Shown piece by piece: positions 3,624 through 52,588 of a stretch of 64,000 nucleotides of DNA. Origin of the DNA: Holophagales bacterium (GTDB lineage: Bacteria > Acidobacteriota > Thermoanaerobaculia > UBA5066); the NCBI GenBank assembly GCA_016714815.1, contig JADKBZ010000014.1:83320-147319 (forward strand). Direction: 5' to 3'. The position numbers and the translations under genes were made by a program. Positions within the stretch are counted from its first letter, which is position 1, and every line of letters begins with the position of its first letter. The notes below the pieces were generated by a model. That model did no database searches and was not told the DNA's origin. It was given only the letters and a program-made list of their open reading frames with translations.

Positions 3624-4652
3624 GTGGGGATTGGACTTGCCGCTGGCTTCGACCCGCGTCTCGCCCTGGTCGACCCGCGCTCGGGCCTCCTCGGGATCAC
3701 GCCGGCGCTCGTCTTGGCCGGCTTGGGCTACTCGGTCCCGCTGCTGCTCATCCTCTTTGCGCACGAGCTCGGCCACTACCTCATGTGCCGACGCTACGGA
3801 CTCGACGCCTCGCCACCGTTTTTCCTGCCTTTGATCCTGCCGATTCAGCCGTATTTCGTCATGCCTGGGACTTTCGGGGCGGTCATCAAGGTCCGAGAGC
3901 CGATCCGCGACAAGCGAGCCCTCTTCGACATGGCCGTGGCCGGCCCCATCGCCGGATTCGTGGTTGCGCTCCCGTTCGCATGCTACGGAATCCTCCACAC
4001 CCGGCTGAACTTCGATCCCGTGCCGCCGGATGCGACTCTGTTCGGTTACCCCTTGGTCGTAAAGGGTCTCCAGATCCTCCTGACCGGGCACGCTTTCACG
4101 AGCGTCCAGGTCCTCGAGCACCCGACTTTCTTCGCCGCCTGGTTCGGCTTCCTCGTCACGGCGCTCAATCTCCTTCCGGCAGGACAGCTGGATGGGGGTC
4201 ACACGCTCTTCGCCGTCTCGCCAACCGCACACAAAGCTCTGCGCTGGCCGCTCGTCGCCGTTCTTGCCGCCGCCGGGTGGTTCCTGTTTCCAGGCTGGGG
4301 GCTGTGGGCGGTCATCGTGATCGTCCTCAGCCGTTTCGGCCGGGCCCAGCTCCGCGACGCGGAGACGCCGCTCGACCCGAGACGACGCGCCGTTGCCGTC
4401 CTCGTCCTGGTGATCTTCGTCGTCAGCCTAGTCCCGGTCCCGTATCGCTTCGGATCCGACCTCGCGCCGCTTCGTCCGCCACGAGAAGGTGGCGGGACCG
4501 TCGTTCAAGAGCTCCACCTCCATCGACGCCCCGAAGCTCCCGGTCGCCACGACGACCCCCGAGGCGCGAAGCACCGCGAGGTAGCGCCCGAAGAGCGGCC
4601 TCGCCTCGTCGGGGCGGGCCGCCCCCTCGAACCCGGGCCTCCGCCCGCGTGA
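3624..4652 (+). CDS. Peptidase M50 (site-2 protease family) integral membrane metalloprotease. The start may be upstream at a non-ATG codon, and the 3' tail overlaps dtd
   Basis: HELGHYLMCRRYG is an HExxH motif inside a TM helix. The protein has multiple hydrophobic helices and an LNLLPAGQLDGGH motif (the LDG zinc-ligand region of M50). Confidence 0.65.
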   Translation: MGIGLAAGFDPRLALVDPRSGLLGITPALVLAGLGYSVPLLLILFAHELGHYLMCRRYGLDASPPFFLPLILPIQPYFVMPGTFGAVIKVREPIRDKRALFDMAVAGPIAGFVVALPFACYGILHTRLNFDPVPPDATLFGYPLVVKGLQILLTGHAFTSVQVLEHPTFFAAWFGFLVTALNLLPAGQLDGGHTLFAVSPTAHKALRWPLVAVLAAAGWFLFPGWGLWAVIVIVLSRFGRAQLRDAETPLDPRRRAVAVLVLVIFVVSLVPVPYRFGSDLAPLRPPREGGGTVVQELHLHRRPEAPGRHDDPRGAKHREVAPEERPRLVGAGRPLEPGPPPA

Positions 4653-4907
4653 GAGGTCGGCCCCGAGCGTGAACTGCGAGACGGCGAGCACCGCGCCCCC
4701 CACCTGCGTCACGTCGAGATTCATCTTCCCCTGATCGTCCTCGAAGACCCGGAGCTCGACCGTCTTGCGGGCCGCGTCGTCCATCGCGTCGAGGCCGTCT
4801 CCCGGCTCGACGCAGGCGAAGACGAGGAGACCGCGCCCGATCTCCCCCACTGTCTGGCCAGAGACGCGGACGGCGGCGCGGGAGACTCGCTGGAGTAGCA
4901 GGATCAC
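4428..4907 (-). CDS. dtd: D-aminoacyl-tRNA deacylase
   Basis: From an internal GTG: (M)ILLLQRVSRAAVRVSGQTVGEIGRGLLVFACVEPGD...SQFTLGADLSRGRRPGFEGAARPDEARPLF...GSFGASMEVELLNDGPATF. This is the Dtd SQFTL / NDGPVT signature. The 189-aa track ORF begins too far upstream. Confidence 0.8.
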   Translation of the reverse strand: MILLLQRVSRAAVRVSGQTVGEIGRGLLVFACVEPGDGLDAMDDAARKTVELRVFEDDQGKMNLDVTQVGGAVLAVSQFTLGADLSRGRRPGFEGAARPDEARPLFGRYLAVLRASGVVVATGSFGASMEVELLNDGPATFSWRTKRREVGSEAIRDRD

Positions 4908-47045: not shown

Positions 47046-47810
47046 TCAGCGGCCGGGAGCTCCCGCCGTGACCGGCGGAGCGAAGAGGGCGTCGTCGAGG
47101 ACCGCCTTCTCCGCGTCGAGGTATTCGACGAGGGTCGTCCCGGGTCGGAGCGCGTCGACGATCGTCATCCGCGTCACCGTCGGCGCCCCGCGAAGCGAAC
47201 CCCATTCGTCGAAGGTCGCCTCGCGCGCCGTCTTGCCCGACGGAAGGAGGAAGACGATCTTCCGCGTCCTCCCCTCCTCGCGGTCGACCCAGACGCGCAG
47301 GACCGGGAAGGCCGGGTCCCTCCCTTTCTTTCCGGTGAGGCGGAGAACGTCGCAGAGCCTTCCTCCGAACGTGTCGCTGCGCTCGACGACGGCATCGTAG
47401 TCATCGACGAAGCGGGTCCGCGCGACGTCCGCCACGGCGAAGCCCCCGGTCACCCTGTGGCTGCGCGGCACCTTGATCGGGTTCTTCGTCCCCGGGAGGA
47501 TGAGCCAGGCGTTCTTTCCGTTCACGAGGAGGAGCTTGCCGCGATCCTCCGGGGCGGCGAACTCGATCCGGAGCTTTTCCGGGCCTTTCACGAGGACGGT
47601 GAACTCCCCCGCGAAGGCGGAGGCGCCCGTTCGCGAGGTCGTCACGCGGAGCCTCATCCGCGCCTCCGAGAGCGCGCTCCTCGGCCCGTCCGCCCTCGCG
47701 AGGATGGCGGCGGCGGCGCCGGCGTCCCCGCGCGCGGGGGGCGCGAGGAGGAGCAGCGCGAAGACCGGGGCCAAGCCCGGCCGCTGGAGCGCGGGCCGCC
47801 GCTCAGACAT
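47046..47810 (-). CDS. Outer-membrane lipoprotein-sorting (LolA-like) periplasmic protein, last gene of the ABC operon
   Basis: Signal peptide MSERRPALQRPGLAPVFALLLLAPPARG. ~250-aa beta-rich protein. Its position after the MacB/LolC-type permease and the 4-nt overlaps are typical for LolA-like carrier genes. Confidence 0.5.
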   Translation of the reverse strand: MSERRPALQRPGLAPVFALLLLAPPARGDAGAAAAILARADGPRSALSEARMRLRVTTSRTGASAFAGEFTVLVKGPEKLRIEFAAPEDRGKLLLVNGKNAWLILPGTKNPIKVPRSHRVTGGFAVADVARTRFVDDYDAVVERSDTFGGRLCDVLRLTGKKGRDPAFPVLRVWVDREEGRTRKIVFLLPSGKTAREATFDEWGSLRGAPTVTRMTIVDALRPGTTLVEYLDAEKAVLDDALFAPPVTAGAPGR

Positions 47811-49035
47811 GGGTCAGGGCCTCCACCGGGTCGAGGCGCGCCGCGCGGCGGGCCGGCCACCACGACGCGGCGAGGAGGGTGACGGTCATCAGGACGAAGC
47901 CGACGAGGAAGGCGGCCGGGATCAGCTCGACGTGGAGGACTCCCCCGCTCGTCGCGCCGGGGGGCGGCGGCAGGTTGATCTCTGCGGCGTTGATCGCGGC
48001 ACGGATCAGGAGCGACCCGACGGCGCCCGCGAGCGAGCCCCCGAGGCCCATCAGGAGCCCCTCGGCGAGAAAGAGGTTCCTCACCTGGCGGCGTTCCATG
48101 CCGATGGCCAGGAGCGTTCCGATCTCGCGAGTCCTCTCGAAGACCGACATCGTCATGGTGTTCGCCGCCGCCAGGATGACGACCGTGGCCAGGACGAGGC
48201 CCGTGAAGAGGAAGATCGCGGCGTAGAGGCGCCTCACGGCGACGTAGAAGGGCGCGCTCTCGATCCAGGTCTTCACGGCGGCGCCGGCCCCGCCTCGATG
48301 GAGCCGCGCACGAAGGGCTCCCGCGGCCTTCTCCAGGTCCACTCCCGGCTTCAGCGTGACGGCGATCGACGTCGCCTTTCCCTCCGCCTTCAGGAGCCGC
48401 GCCGCCGGGGCGTACGGGAGGAAGAGGAGCCGGTCGTCCAGCTCCTTGATCGGCCAGCGGAGGATGGCGACGACGGTCGCGTCGATGGCGTTCAGACCGC
48501 CGTCCGGCGTCGTCGTCATGACGGTGACGAGGTCCCCGGTCTTCGCCCCGAGAGAGCGGGCGAGCCCGCCGCCGAGCATCACCTCGTCGCCTTCGGGGTC
48601 GGCGAGGAAGGCTCCCTCGGCCACGGCCTCGGCCGTGAGCGTCGCGCTCTTCTCGAGGGCGGGGACCGTCCCCGTCCCCATGTAGCCGACGCTCCGCTCC
48701 CCGCGCGCGACGAGGCCGAAGAACGCGAGCCGGGGCATCGCCTGGAGGACGTCCGGGCTCGTCGCGACGCTCCGGGTCAGCTCCCCGGCGTGATCGAGGA
48801 GGAGCGTCGCGGCCTCCTCGTCGCTCTTGCCGACCGACGCGGCGCTGACGACCTGCAGGTGCCCCCCCTGGCCCCGGATCGTGATGTCCTTCAGGCCTCG
48901 GAAAGTCTGCGCGACGAAGCCGGCGGTCATCGTGGCGGCGACGAAGCCGACGACGACGATGCTGCCGGTCAGGACGGTCCGGCGGCCGTGCCGGAAGAGG
49001 TTCCGCGCCGCGAGCCGCCACCAGCGCAGGCTCAC
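47803..49035 (-). CDS. ABC transporter permease, FtsX/MacB/LolC family
   Basis: MSLRWWRLAARNLFRHGRRTVLTGSIVVVGFVAATM... is the first TM. A large periplasmic loop is followed by three C-terminal TMs (FtsX-like topology). Confidence 0.8.
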   Translation of the reverse strand: MSLRWWRLAARNLFRHGRRTVLTGSIVVVGFVAATMTAGFVAQTFRGLKDITIRGQGGHLQVVSAASVGKSDEEAATLLLDHAGELTRSVATSPDVLQAMPRLAFFGLVARGERSVGYMGTGTVPALEKSATLTAEAVAEGAFLADPEGDEVMLGGGLARSLGAKTGDLVTVMTTTPDGGLNAIDATVVAILRWPIKELDDRLLFLPYAPAARLLKAEGKATSIAVTLKPGVDLEKAAGALRARLHRGGAGAAVKTWIESAPFYVAVRRLYAAIFLFTGLVLATVVILAAANTMTMSVFERTREIGTLLAIGMERRQVRNLFLAEGLLMGLGGSLAGAVGSLLIRAAINAAEINLPPPPGATSGGVLHVELIPAAFLVGFVLMTVTLLAASWWPARRAARLDPVEALTHV

Positions 49036-49736
49036 GACGCACCTCCCGCCGGCGTCTCGTCGGAGACGATGAGGCCGTCGACGAGGCGAATCCGCCTCGG
49101 GACGCGCTCGACGATGCGCGGATCGTGGCTGGAGAAGAGAAAGGCGATCCCCTTTTCCGCGTGGAGGGCGTCGAAGAGGTCGAGGAGACGCGCGGCCGTC
49201 TCGGAGTCGAGCGAGGCGGTCGGCTCGTCCGCGAGGACGAGCGCCGGCTCGCCGACGATGGCCCGGGCGACGGCGACCCGCTGTCGCTGGCCGCCGGACA
49301 TCGCGTCGGGCCGGCGCCCCTCCATTCCGGAGAGCCCGACGGAAGCGAGTGCTGCGCGCGCGCGCGTCCGGCAGTCGACCTCGGGGAGGCCCCGGATCCA
49401 GAGCGCGAGGGCGACGTTCTCCTCGGCGGAGAGAACCGGGACGAGCTGGTGCGACTGGAAGACGAAGCCGAGCTTCTCGCGCCGGAGCCGGGCGCGCCCC
49501 CGGTCGTCGAGGGTCGAGACGTCCTCGCCCAGGAGCTCCAGCCGGCCCGCGTCGGGCCGGTCGAGAAGGCCGAGGAGGTTCAGGAGGGTCGTCTTCCCGC
49601 TTCCGGAAGGCCCCGCGAGGACGGCGAGCTCGCCCGCCGCGAAGGAGAGTGTCGCCTCGCGAACGCCGACGACGCGCTCCTGGCCCGAAGCGTAGATCCG
49701 CGTGAGGCCGCGAGCAGCCAGGAGGGGGACGCTCAC
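49032..49736 (-). CDS. ABC transporter ATP-binding protein (LolD/MacB-ATPase type)
   Basis: GPSGSGKTTLLNLLG (Walker A), LSGGQRQRVAVARAI (signature), LVLADEPTASLD (Walker B). Confidence 0.85.
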   Translation of the reverse strand: MSVPLLAARGLTRIYASGQERVVGVREATLSFAAGELAVLAGPSGSGKTTLLNLLGLLDRPDAGRLELLGEDVSTLDDRGRARLRREKLGFVFQSHQLVPVLSAEENVALALWIRGLPEVDCRTRARAALASVGLSGMEGRRPDAMSGGQRQRVAVARAIVGEPALVLADEPTASLDSETAARLLDLFDALHAEKGIAFLFSSHDPRIVERVPRRIRLVDGLIVSDETPAGGAS

Positions 49737-50539
49737 TTCCGGCGCCTGAGCCGCCCGGCGACCACTCCGACGAGAAAGAGGAGCGTGCCGGTCAGGATGA
49801 TCGCCGCGCCCGACGGGATGTCGAGGGAGACGGAGAGGAGGAGCCCGCCGAGAACCATGACGAGGGACGCGCCGATGGATCCGAGGAGGAACCCGGGCCA
49901 GCGCGATGCCAGAGATCGCGCGACGGCGCCGGGGAGGACGAGGAGGGCCGAGACGAGGAGGATCCCGACGACCTTCAGCGCGACGACGACGGTCAGCGCG
50001 AGGAGGACGAGGACGAGCAGGCGCATCCGGGCGACGTTCACGCCGGCGGCGAACGCCCCGTCCTCGTCGACGGACGCGAGCAGGAGCGGCCGGAAGTAGA
50101 GGACGAGGAGCGTTAGGACGAGGAGCGAGGCGCCGCCGAGGGCGAGGAGGTCCTTCGGGTCGACCGTCAGGATGTTCCCGAACATCAGGCCGAAGAGGTC
50201 GACGTTCGTCTCGAGGAAGCTGATCGCCACGACGCCGATCGCCATCGCCGCCACGGTGAAGACGCCGACGGCCGTGTCCTCGGTCAGCTCCCCGTCGTCC
50301 GAGGCCTTCGCCGTCGCGAGCGCCACCGCGAGCGCGGCGACGAGCGCCCCGAGGCCCGGAGGCGCGCCCACGAGCGCCGCGAGAGCGACCCCGCCGAACG
50401 CCCCGTGAGAGACCCCGGAACCGACGAACGCGAGCCGACGGAGGACGACGAAGAACGAGAGCGCCCCGCAGACGACGGCGACGATGAACCCCGCCGCCAG
50501 CGCCCGCTGGAAGAACGGGAACGCGAGGAATTCGATCAC
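49733..50539 (-). CDS. znuB: Zinc/manganese ABC transporter permease (ABC-3 family)
   Basis: From a GTG: MIEFLAFPFFQRALAAGFIVAVVCGALSFFVVLRRLAFVGSGVSHGAFGGVALA... 8-9 TMs. The first ~230 codons of the track ORF are shadow. Confidence 0.75.
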   Translation of the reverse strand: MIEFLAFPFFQRALAAGFIVAVVCGALSFFVVLRRLAFVGSGVSHGAFGGVALAALVGAPPGLGALVAALAVALATAKASDDGELTEDTAVGVFTVAAMAIGVVAISFLETNVDLFGLMFGNILTVDPKDLLALGGASLLVLTLLVLYFRPLLLASVDEDGAFAAGVNVARMRLLVLVLLALTVVVALKVVGILLVSALLVLPGAVARSLASRWPGFLLGSIGASLVMVLGGLLLSVSLDIPSGAAIILTGTLLFLVGVVAGRLRRRK

Positions 50540-51195
50540 GCGTGGCGCTCCTCGACGACGCGGCCGTCGATCCGGAAGACGGCGTCGGCCCCCCCCATCG
50601 CGTCGCTGTCGTGCGTGACGTAGACGATCGTCCGGCCCGCCGCCACCTCTTCCGCCGCGATCCGGCGGAGCGTCTTCATCCCTTCCGAGTCGAGCGCGGT
50701 GTCGGGCTCGTCGAGGAGGAGGAGCGCGGGCGTCCCCGCGATGGCCCGGGCGAGGAGCACCCTCTGCCGCTGCCCGCCCGAGAGCCGGCCGACGGGGCGG
50801 GTCGCGAGCTCCTCGTCGAGCCCGGCTCGCGCGAGGGCGCGCCGGGCCTCGGCCTCGACGGCGCGGGACATCCCGAAGCCGGGCCCCGGCGAGAGCGCGA
50901 GGCCGACGAGATCGAGCCCGGTGACCGGCGCCTGGGGCGAGAGGGTCGAGCGTTGAGGCAGGTATCCGATGCGCGGGCGAGGAAGCTCCCGACCCGTTTC
51001 GTCGAGAAAGGCGACCCGCCCGCTCTCCGGCGTCAGGAAGCCGAGGAGGACCCGCGCCAGGGTCGTCTTGCCTCCGCCGTTCGGGCCGACGAGCGCGGTC
51101 CGGAGCCCGGCCGGAATCGTGAAGGAGGCCGAGGAGACCGCCGTCCGCCCGCTGAAGGAGACGGTGACGTCCTCGAAGCGGACGGCCACGCTCAC
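50536..51195 (-). CDS. znuC: Zinc ABC transporter ATP-binding protein
   Basis: VGPNGGGKTTLARVLLG (Walker A), LSGGQRQRVLLARAI, LLLLDEPDTALD. Start GTG MSVAVRFEDVTV. Confidence 0.8.
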   Translation of the reverse strand: MSVAVRFEDVTVSFSGRTAVSSASFTIPAGLRTALVGPNGGGKTTLARVLLGFLTPESGRVAFLDETGRELPRPRIGYLPQRSTLSPQAPVTGLDLVGLALSPGPGFGMSRAVEAEARRALARAGLDEELATRPVGRLSGGQRQRVLLARAIAGTPALLLLDEPDTALDSEGMKTLRRIAAEEVAAGRTIVYVTHDSDAMGGADAVFRIDGRVVEERHA

Positions 51196-52202
51196 TCTTT
51201 CGCTCCGGTCGTGGCGGGAAGGGCGCGGCGGAAGGCATCCGCGTTGAAGCGCATCAGCTGAGGATACGTCTCCCGCCCCGGCACGCCGCCGATCGGGTCG
51301 ACGAGCGCGAGCTCGAGGCGGGCCTCCCGCGCGACGACCCTCGCCGCCGCCGGAGGGAACTGCGGCTCGGTGAAGAGCCGGCCCAGGCCGCCGCGGCGCC
51401 CTTCCTCGACGAGCGCCTTCAGCTGGCGAGGGGAGGGCTCGCGCCCCGGCACCGGCTCGATGGAGGCGGCTTCGACGAGCCCGTAGCGATCGGCGAAGTA
51501 GACCCAGGCCCGGTGGGCGGAGACGAATCGCTTTCCGCGCACGGGCGCGAGCTTCGCGGCGAGCTCCCGGTCCAGGGCCAGGTACGCGTCCGCCGTCTCG
51601 CGGGCGCGGCGCCGATAGCCCTCGGCGCCGGCCGGGTCGACGGCGGCGAGCTCCTCGGCGAGCGGGGCGAGGCTCCTGGCCGCCAGGACCGGCGAAAGCC
51701 ACCAGTGGGGGTCTTCTCCCAGCACGCCGTGCGCGTGGCCTTCGTGCCCGCTCTCCGCGGCGTCCGGCTCGCCGCCGGGCGGTTCTTCCGGGCCGTGGTC
51801 GTGCCCTTCGTGAAGGCCGGCAGCCTCGTCGTCGTGCGCGCCGGGCCCGATTCCGAGCGAGGCCGCGGTGTCGTGGAGCCGCGCGTTCGAGGCGCACGCC
51901 GCGAGGATCCGCCCCATCCAGGCGTCGTATCCCGCCCCGGCGACGACGACCAGCTTCGCCCCGACGAGCTTCCGGAGGTCGGAAGGCTCGGGCTCGAAGA
52001 CGTGAGGAGAGGTCCCCGGCGGGATGACGGTCCGAACCGTCCAGCCGGGACCCGCGACGCTTCGAACCAGGTCCGCCAGGGGGGCGATCGTCGCGACGGC
52101 CACCGGACGTCCGTCCGCGACGCCGCGACGGCCGGCCTGGCACCCCGGGAGAAGCGCGAGCAGGAGAGCCGCCAGGGCCGCGCACCGGGATCGGCCCGTC
52201 AT
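51192..52202 (-). CDS. znuA: Zinc ABC transporter substrate-binding lipoprotein with a His/Asp/Glu-rich loop
   Basis: MTGRSRCAALAALLLALLPGCQA (lipobox). ...GTSPHVFEPEPSD... His-rich loop GAHDDEAAGLHEGHDHGPEEPPGGEPDAAESGHEGHAHG. ...DPHWWLSP (cluster A-I SBP motifs). Confidence 0.8.
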   Translation of the reverse strand: MTGRSRCAALAALLLALLPGCQAGRRGVADGRPVAVATIAPLADLVRSVAGPGWTVRTVIPPGTSPHVFEPEPSDLRKLVGAKLVVVAGAGYDAWMGRILAACASNARLHDTAASLGIGPGAHDDEAAGLHEGHDHGPEEPPGGEPDAAESGHEGHAHGVLGEDPHWWLSPVLAARSLAPLAEELAAVDPAGAEGYRRRARETADAYLALDRELAAKLAPVRGKRFVSAHRAWVYFADRYGLVEAASIEPVPGREPSPRQLKALVEEGRRGGLGRLFTEPQFPPAAARVVAREARLELALVDPIGGVPGRETYPQLMRFNADAFRRALPATTGAKE

Positions 52203-52276
52203 CGGGCCGGCCCCGGCGCGGCTTGACCCCGGGTGTCGAAACGGACGATGCTCCCGTTCAGGGAGGGCGATACGCC

Positions 52277-52588
52277 GTGGAGCATCAGGACGATCATCCG
52301 CACGAGCACGGGCCGGGCTGCGGTCACAGGGCCGTTCGTCATGGCGATCACGCCGATTATCTCCACGACGGGCACCTCCACTCACCCGGCGGCTCCGGCA
52401 TCGCCGAGCACGTCCTCGAGGTGAGCTGCGGCAGGCCGGCCGCCTGCGCGCCCGTCGAGTGCGCGGCGAAACACCACCCCGGCTGCGGGCATCCCGAGGT
52501 CCCGCACGGCGACCACGTCGACTACCTCGTCGACGGGGCCCTCCACCACCTTCACGGCGACCACTGCGACCTTCACGGCACCGTCTGA
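52277..52588 (+). CDS. Small His-rich repeat protein (putative metal-binding, zinc-regulon-associated), divergent from znuA
   Basis: 103 aa from GTG 52277, with RBS GGGAGGG 9 nt upstream. MEHQDDHPHEHGPGCGHRAVRHGDHADYLHDGHLH...AKHHPGCGHPEVPHGDHVDYLVDGALHHLHGDHCDLHGTV. Two copies of an H-G-D-H-x-D-Y-L-x-D-G-x-L-H motif, each preceded by (H)PGCGH. The track lists it from an earlier TTG (52223). Confidence 0.4.
   Translation: MEHQDDHPHEHGPGCGHRAVRHGDHADYLHDGHLHSPGGSGIAEHVLEVSCGRPAACAPVECAAKHHPGCGHPEVPHGDHVDYLVDGALHHLHGDHCDLHGTV

Follow-up and report, generated by a model that had tools for sequence, protein, structure and literature searches.

It is still poorly understood how bacteria buffer zinc in the cytosol and distribute it among importers, sensors and client proteins. 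Few of them have classical metallothioneins, and the COG0523 chaperones account for only part of the zinc traffic. The closest described systems are the metallothioneins SmtA and BmtA with the repressor SmtB, the pneumococcal histidine-triad (Pht) proteins, the COG0523 metallochaperones, the small His-rich Hpn proteins of Helicobacter, and the accessory proteins ZinT, AztD and ZepA. Here we analyse a stretch of 64,000 nucleotides (nt) from a Holophagales bacterium (contig JADKBZ010000014.1; the whole stretch is called the window below), in which a mini-gene for a 103-residue protein rich in His and Cys lies divergent from a znuA-znuC-znuB importer operon. A first-pass annotation of this DNA had proposed that the product is a zinc (or Ni/Co) chaperone, a periplasmic zinc buffer or a metallochaperone, controlled by Zur through an operator shared with znuA. 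Our preferred reading, to which we give a probability of roughly 0.55, is that the mini-protein is a cytoplasmic multi-zinc-binding buffer or acceptor belonging to a widespread undescribed family.

Like SmtA and BmtA, the mini-protein is small, cytosolic and dense in ligands, and in ~40% of the species loci its gene stands beside an alpha5 ArsR regulator of the SmtB/CzrA type; a sequestration or buffering role is plausible for it. His outnumbers Cys among its ligands (21 against 6), whereas metallothioneins are Cys-dominated; it has neither a match to the Pfam metallothionein family (Metallothio_Pro) nor a Cys-dominated Zn4 cluster motif, it is predicted to form a two-repeat beta-hairpin structure, and the window copy lies beside an importer and not a regulator. 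PhtA, PhtB, PhtD and PhtE, which feed zinc to the ZnuA-family protein AdcAII, resemble it in their repeated short His motifs (the histidine triad HxxHxH, as in HGDHYHY, there; HGDHxD here), in the adjacency of a ZnuA-family transporter gene and in their beta-rich zinc-binding units. They differ in being large surface lipoproteins, whereas the mini-protein is a cytoplasmic protein of 103 residues with the motif HxxHxD and no signal peptide, and the streptococcal histidine triad family (PF04270) gave no match to it even at E <= 10. With the COG0523 metallochaperones (ZigA, ZagA, YeiR and the CobW-like proteins of Cupriavidus) it would share the task of cytosolic zinc allocation, and the genes are often side by side; the mini-protein has neither a GTPase domain nor sequence similarity to them, and would more likely be a partner or a store than a chaperone driven by nucleotides. 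Hpn and Hpn-like are likewise small, cytosolic and very His-rich, but Hpn is a low-complexity and lineage-restricted protein, whereas the ligands of the mini-protein occupy fixed positions, kept across phyla, in a confidently predicted fold. ZinT, AztD and ZepA are also accessory metal-binding proteins that are encoded with zinc importers and were found via zinc-related neighbourhoods; in contrast to the cytoplasmic mini-protein with its far more numerous ligands, they are exported, have unrelated folds and bind one or two zinc ions. Neither a signal peptide nor a Pfam or NCBIfam match places the mini-protein with ZinT or AztD, and identity with ZepA was rejected, since ZepA is an unrelated 27-kDa immunoglobulin-like PEP-CTERM protein (PMC10957091). 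By analogy, the mini-protein would be functionally most like SmtA with its sensor SmtB, while its motif logic resembles that of the pneumococcal histidine-triad proteins; we rate the family and its predicted fold as undescribed, and the job as one of a familiar type.

The window protein contains two copies of HGPGCGH..HGDHxDYLxDGxLH(H). Alignment of one half with the other gave a BLOSUM62 score of 106, far above the 36 +/- 7 (maximum 63) obtained from 500 shuffles, which confirms the tandem repeat described in the first-pass annotation; the His content is somewhat lower than the ~24% given there, at 21 of 103 residues (20.4%), together with 6 Cys, 16 acidic and 4 basic residues. Conservation was counted over 117 aligned sequences, namely the window protein and 116 relatives with which it can be aligned end to end at 56-89% identity. 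All 14 invariant columns of this alignment are present in the window protein, and at least 90% of the sequences share 19 His, 4 Cys, 5 Asp and 1 Glu with it, which amounts to about 29 candidate ligand positions. The family consensus reads MxxxxxxHxxHxHxHGPxCGHTAVRHGDHVDYLHDGHLHHPHGDHVDEHVxEVS..NP..C..(linker)..HxHGPGCGHEAVPHGDHVDYLVDGxLHHPHGDHCDDHG, and we define the family by two repeats of HxHG(P)xCGH-x4-HGDHxDYLxDGxLH(H) followed by a C-terminal HGDHCDxHG, a definition under which the window protein qualifies. Its N-terminus is VEHQDDHPHEHGPGCGH, where the consensus of the relatives has MxxxxxxHxxHxH; the His-rich domain opens the chain directly and, judged by eye, neither the window protein nor any of its aligned relatives has a signal peptide. 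The window protein thus has the features of the cytoplasmic form (~100-120 residues, no signal peptide), and the periplasmic location proposed earlier is not supported for it.

Among clustered public proteins, 2365 homologues were found at E <= 0.01, so that the database search suggested in the first-pass annotation as a check had a positive outcome; essentially all are ~103-120 residues long and either unnamed or labelled "hypothetical". A profile search returned 1185 clusters at 50% identity, and a scan of one genome per species identified at least 586 carrier species, distributed over Acidobacteriota, Alpha-, Beta- and Gammaproteobacteria, Planctomycetota, Verrucomicrobiota, Gemmatimonadota, Chloroflexota, Actinomycetota, Myxococcota and Sericytochromatia. 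Further copies were located by tblastn on Pediococcus, Streptomyces and Rhodococcus replicons, and cultured carriers exist. The closest relatives (84-89% identity) come from Holophagales and Thermoanaerobaculia genomes, which points to this part of the Acidobacteriota as the probable origin of the window; identity across phyla is ~60%. In RefSeq, the mini-gene is labelled "hypothetical protein" on each of the three annotated replicons inspected (Pantoea, Pediococcus and Paraburkholderia). Pfam, NCBIfam and PHROGs gave no match for the window protein (Pfam E <= 0.1) or for 26 family members (Pfam E <= 10), apart from low-level profile matches (DUF3659 and others, E >= 0.03) that we regard as noise; PDB sequence searches with the single protein and with the 117-sequence profile returned nothing relevant, and literature searches by motif strings, RefSeq accessions and keywords found no description of the family. 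The repeat motif, which the first-pass annotation could not assign to a named family, therefore belongs to none.

AlphaFold2, run with the 117-sequence alignment, yielded a model made up of beta-hairpins only, with a predicted local distance difference test score (pLDDT) of 86.8 and a predicted template modelling score of 0.77; it replaces an earlier run with 26 sequences, for which the pLDDT was 61. Foldseek found no match in the PDB for either the low- or the high-confidence model (best E-value 1.5), and the weak matches returned at E >= 1.5 were other beta-hairpin repeat proteins. On the strength of this model, the fold of the family is predicted to be new.

Several lines of evidence establish the mini-gene and its frame. 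The mechanically called open reading frame (ORF) opens at TTG 52223 and would encode 121 residues, but the extra N-terminal part has no conserved counterpart in relatives; we take GTG 52277 as the start because the ribosome-binding site GGGAGGG and all relatives support it, and L014, L016, L015 and L001, the four nearest relatives, have a (G)GAGG-type purine block at the matching position. Compared with four relatives, the window gene shows 30-38 substitutions at codon position 3 against 7-15 at positions 1 and 2, and 23-29 synonymous against 13-16 non-synonymous codon changes; the excess at third positions and among synonymous changes therefore indicates that the plus-strand frame is under purifying selection. 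The minus-strand ORFs at 52199-52381 and 52382-52576, which had been listed as competitors, are shadows of this selected frame. Thus the 103-residue ORF with a strong ribosome-binding site stands, as does its distance of 74 nt from the znuA start on the opposite strand; of the interval first assigned to it, 52203-52588, the end is correct, whereas 52203 is the start of the intergenic region and the gene itself begins at 52277.

To characterize its genomic context, we surveyed 94 loci by clustering of neighbouring ORFs and by tblastn with reference proteins, and counts are given per 80 species loci. A divergent znuA-family transporter gene is present in 11-13 of them, a positive answer to the suggestion that relatives be inspected for such a neighbour. 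The arrangement seen in the window recurs in Acidobacteriota (L001, L002, L011, L014-L016, L018, L020, L021, L033 and L056) and in L017, a metagenome-assembled genome (MAG) labelled Acidithiobacillales, with the shared order znuB-znuC-znuA, divergent mini-gene, a convergent gene for a ~330-residue protein without known domain, and gpsA. The commonest neighbour is an ArsR/SmtB regulator gene, which lies directly upstream on the same strand in ~31 loci (about 40%), in a tight operon with 15-100 nt between the two genes. The pattern D-x-H-x10-H-x2-E, the alpha5 motif of the canonical Zn(II) sensor (PMC11672702, section 3.2.2.1), occurs in 25 of the 29 adjacent regulators read, 26 of which come from distinct loci. 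About ten of these operons, from Alpha- and Gammaproteobacteria, have upstream of arsR a palindrome of the form ATCATTCCAT-N-ATGGAATGAT (L005, L008, L023, L031, L034, L050, L064, L073, L077 and L093), a probable operator for the alpha5 ArsR/SmtB repressor encoded there. By RefSeq annotation, the module of arsR and mini-gene also resides on a Pantoea ananatis plasmid and, beside transposases, on plasmids of Pediococcus damnosus beer isolates.

Other zinc-related genes and sites appear at smaller numbers of loci. About 10-14 of the 80 loci have a COG0523 GTPase gene with the CxCC motif no more than 5 kb away, and one is also present on a Paraburkholderia plasmid; a ZIP transporter gene and two Fur-family genes lie beside the mini-gene in L008. 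Sites of the Paracoccus Zur motif, which has been verified by electrophoretic mobility shift assay (PMC5387054, Table 7), occur within 260 bp upstream in L024, L032, L054 and L082, all of them alphaproteobacterial and without an ArsR neighbour (7 matches, versus 0.87 expected from the rest of the loci). The gammaproteobacterial-type Zur box TGTTATAWTATAACA (<=3 mismatches) was not found upstream of gammaproteobacterial copies, upstream matches being confined to L041, L082 and L090, and tblastn with reference proteins detected no metal genes near the mini-gene on Vibrio and Cupriavidus replicons. As a separate observation, arsR and the mini-gene are followed by one or two COG0523 GTPase genes in L026, L030, L036 (Reyranella, Rhodospirillales), L061 and L096, and the placement of an SmtB-type sensor of metal excess beside COG0523 genes, which are usually induced by starvation, is an unexplained regulatory combination.

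The domain is also found as part of larger proteins. In P0158 (L097), a ZnuB permease carries the complete two-repeat domain at its C-terminus, with znuC directly upstream; P0122 and P0207 are ArsR HTH_5 proteins with the domain at the C-terminus, and fusions of the P0122 type occur in several independent assemblies. C2H2 zinc fingers with TGEKP-type linkers precede the domain in the amoebozoan proteins P0139 (Physarum) and P0232 (Nematostelium) and in five metagenomic proteins; Fabomonas also has a family copy, and in P0263, a eukaryote-like variant, the two repeats are separated by a Cys-rich insert that resembles a metallothionein. Judged by eye, 11 of the 15 longer representatives read begin with a signal peptide or lipobox (P0134, P0138, P0141, P0142, P0144, P0146, P0157, P0160, P0165, P0193 and P0197); in most of these exported variants the Cys of the C-terminal HCD motif is replaced by Val, Ile, Tyr, Gln or Asp. 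Occurrence in the cytoplasm, outside it, on transporters and on transcription factors therefore fits a self-contained metal-binding unit. Together, the comparative context and the domain fusions strongly suggest a role in zinc handling, which is the part of the earlier functional proposal that survives.

We propose that the two ~40-residue beta-hairpin repeats would bind several Zn(II) ions through the ~29 conserved His, Cys, Asp and Glu side chains, with an estimated 5-7 or so tetrahedral Zn(II) sites per mini-protein. The protein would then buffer or accept zinc in the cytosol at high capacity, and so correspond in function to a metallothionein or metallochaperone that relies on His; in the window organism, it would take zinc delivered by the divergently encoded ZnuABC, store it safely and hand it on. 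Such a zinc store or acceptor agrees with the fusion to ZnuB, with COG0523 genes as neighbours and with regulators of the SmtB type. We infer metal binding and its stoichiometry, zinc over nickel or cobalt as the metal, buffering as against directed transfer, and regulation in the window genome from these comparisons. Because of its spread (at least 586 species, 1185 clusters), its predicted new fold, its ~29 conserved ligands and its links to ZnuABC, SmtB, COG0523 and Zur-like boxes, the family is a concrete and testable candidate for the missing zinc-holding component of the bacterial cytosol.

Several observations weigh against a zinc buffer or acceptor. About 35 of the 80 species loci have no metal-related neighbour. 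L012 and L013 retain an intact mini-gene in an otherwise syntenic locus that has lost znuA and znuB and keeps only a znuC-like ATPase gene; the linkage to znuA within Acidobacteriota is therefore partly inherited synteny. In L062 (Bradyrhizobium sp. LHD-71, 3752-4720) and L068 (Solirubrobacter MAG, 3693-4589), the divergently encoded binding protein is of the His/His/Glu/Asp class, that is, of the Mn/Fe SitA/TroA type without a His-rich loop and not of the zinc type, and the link of the mini-gene may extend beyond strictly zinc-type importers. The alpha5 ArsR sensors include Co- and Ni-responsive members (PMC11672702, section 3.2.2.1). The regulatory contexts are also in conflict, since regulators of the SmtB type imply induction by excess, while Zur boxes, znu genes and COG0523 genes imply induction by starvation; a buffer useful in both situations would explain this unusual mixed control, which remains unexplained. 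In the window itself, the gap 52203-52276 contains no AT-rich Zur-like palindrome, there being no established Acidobacteriota Zur motif to compare with, and genes for Fur/Zur, ArsR, COG0523 or the ribosomal proteins L28 and L33 were not detected in the 64 kb by tblastn with reference proteins (two of them for the Fur family). Zur control of the mini-gene, as first suggested, thus receives no support here; the window copy, with no adjacent arsR, does not form an SmtB/ArsR-controlled module, and zinc-responsive expression of this copy is therefore conjectural.

Some of the same evidence could be read in terms of sensing. The mini-protein might be a zinc-sensing regulatory module that switches partners when zinc-loaded rather than a buffer: as part of ZnuB it would control import by trans-inhibition, as part of ArsR or C2H2 factors it would couple transcription to zinc, and as a free protein it would act in trans on ZnuBC or on the co-encoded ArsR repressor. 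Such a role would account for the attachment of the domain to DNA-binding proteins in two domains of life (ArsR HTH_5 in P0122 and P0207; C2H2 in Physarum, Nematostelium and metagenomic proteins) and to the C-terminus of ZnuB, for the tight operons with arsR and the ATCATTCCAT..ATGGAATGAT palindrome upstream of about ten of them, and for the ~60% cross-phylum identity, which suggests conserved partners. We nevertheless consider it unlikely, since the exported and lipoprotein variants cannot reach cytoplasmic regulators, ~29 conserved ligands far exceed the need of a sensor site, and most family members are free-standing, many of them without a regulator or transporter nearby. A wider picture can be entertained only tentatively: the HGDHxDYL repeat could be an ancient, unrecognised plug-in zinc sensor or store shared by bacteria and Amoebozoa, whose free form would set the cytosolic buffer where no metallothionein exists, whose ZnuB-fused form would gate import, whose ArsR- and C2H2-fused forms would make transcription zinc-responsive, and whose exported form would scavenge zinc for ZnuA. 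If this were true, the fold would be new, and zinc homeostasis would have a general component that had gone unnoticed.

The metal may also be a different one. His-rich proteins such as Hpn store nickel, and COG0523 includes the cobalt chaperone CobW; the module of arsR and mini-gene travels on plasmids with transposases on its flanks, as resistance genes do, some alpha5 ArsR sensors respond to Co or Ni as noted above, and L012 and L013 keep the mini-gene without znuA or znuB, all of which would be compatible with storage or detoxification of Ni, Co, Cd or Cu and with an adjacency to znuACB that is inherited synteny without functional meaning. This explanation seems to us rather improbable, and less likely than a sensor, given the ZnuB fusion, the zinc-type ZnuA with its His-rich loop beside the window gene, the Zur-like boxes and the ZIP and Fur-family neighbours elsewhere, the exact canonical zinc-sensor motif in 25 of 29 adjacent regulators, and the zinc-finger proteins that are the eukaryotic fusion partners. 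The version put forward in the first-pass annotation, in which a periplasmic zinc buffer or chaperone under Zur control has an AACGG/CCGTT operator in common with znuA, is largely refuted and deserves very little credence. The divergent position across a 74-nt gap, the exported variants in other organisms and the Zur-like boxes upstream of some alphaproteobacterial copies agree with it, but signal peptides are absent from the window protein and from its close relatives, the inverted repeat is unconserved in the four closest relatives, and no Fur/Zur gene was found in the window.

Features of the mini-gene and of the adjacent importer operon in the window (positions counted from the first nucleotide of the stretch)
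Feature	Position	Strand	Remarks
Mini-gene coding sequence	52277..52588	+	GTG start, TGA stop at 52586-52588; 103 residues; His/Cys-rich two-repeat protein
Ribosome-binding site GGGAGGG	52261..52267	+	9 nt 5' of the GTG start
Putative mini-gene promoter	52223..52252	+	TTGACC (52223-52228), 18-nt spacer, GATGCT (52247-52252)
Inverted repeat AACGG-n9-CCGTT	52240..52258		once in the window; probably fortuitous
Divergent intergenic region znuA/mini-gene	52203..52276		74 nt, GC-rich
znuA	51192..52202	-	ATG start at 52202; PF01297, E 6.8e-63; cluster A-I metal-binding lipoprotein
znuC	50536..51189	-	ATP-binding cassette (ABC) ATPase; PF00005, 3.9e-29; NCBIfam AztA 9.7e-44, under cut-off
znuB	49733..50539	-	ABC-3 permease; PF00950, 1.2e-61

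The promoter listed in the table is putative and inferred from conservation only: the TTGACC hexamer is identical in the five closest loci and GATGCT in four of them, with CATGCT in L014; the spacer of ~18 nt between them is variable. Consensus scans called no promoter, this one included, and no terminator. The inverted repeat that had been reported as AACGG-n10-CCGTT is present, but with a spacer of n9, and it falls between the conserved -35-like and -10-like hexamers. We rejected it as an operator, since it is not conserved in L014, L016, L015 and L001, whose spacers differ, and since a gap of 74 nt can be expected to contain arms of 5 bp by chance; the claim of a shared Zur operator falls with it. 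In more distant Thermoanaerobaculia loci, the znuA start codon is covered by a palindrome (ATGCAACGCGATTGCAT in L002 and L033, ATGCAACGCAGTTGCAT in L056), and these loci, as well as L011, L018 and L021, have candidate operators; in L002, L033 and L056 they lie about 60-110 nt before the mini-gene. The TTGACC hexamer of the more distant Thermoanaerobaculia loci is directly adjoined by the AT-rich element (A)ATTATCCCACGG, and AATTATCCCACGG stands beside the -35 hexamer; palindromes of the ATGCAACGCGATTGCAT type and the AATTATCCCACGG and (A)ATTATCCCACGG elements are absent from the window. Around the znuA start codon of the window, at 52181-52220, there is an 18-nt imperfect inverted repeat (83% complementary; CGCACCGGGATCGGCCCG / CGGGCCGGCCCCGGCGCG), which could occlude initiation of znuA translation in the mRNA or be a chance product of GC-rich sequence.

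The neighbouring operon is a ZnuABC-type (cluster A-I) importer, and the Pfam matches in the table bear out the opposite-strand order znuA-znuC-znuB that had been reported. The start of znuC overlaps the stop of znuA by 4 nt, and that of znuB overlaps the stop of znuC by 4 nt. As read from the sequence, the znuA product has an LLPGC lipobox and a long loop rich in His, Asp and Glu, HDDEAAGLHEGHDHGPEE...GHEGHAHG, and its ligand contexts SPH, DPHWW and SAH place His at all three conserved positions, as in the zinc type. From these residues we infer zinc as the substrate; the NCBIfam equivalog cut-offs were not reached, the best NCBIfam match of ZnuA being AztC, under cut-off.

Directly 3' of znuB lies a MacB/LolCDE-like pair on the same minus strand, an ABC ATPase gene at 49032-49736 and an FtsX permease gene at 47803-49035, which may or may not be co-transcribed with znuACB; in L001 and L012, a TP_0789/LolA-like gene comes after this pair. 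Beyond znuB in some relatives (L002, 959-1351; L011, 583-975; also L021 and L033) are L28 and L33 ribosomal-protein genes whose products lack CxxC motifs, with a His_Phos_1 phosphatase gene and a beta-propeller gene nearby. On the other side of the mini-gene, the stop codon of the convergent gene (52598-~53590, minus strand) is 9 nt away; its ~330-residue product has no Pfam or NCBIfam match. That product contains the glutamine-amidotransferase-like motifs GICHTFG and NHHPE, and the gene holds its position in 15 related loci (cluster 4).

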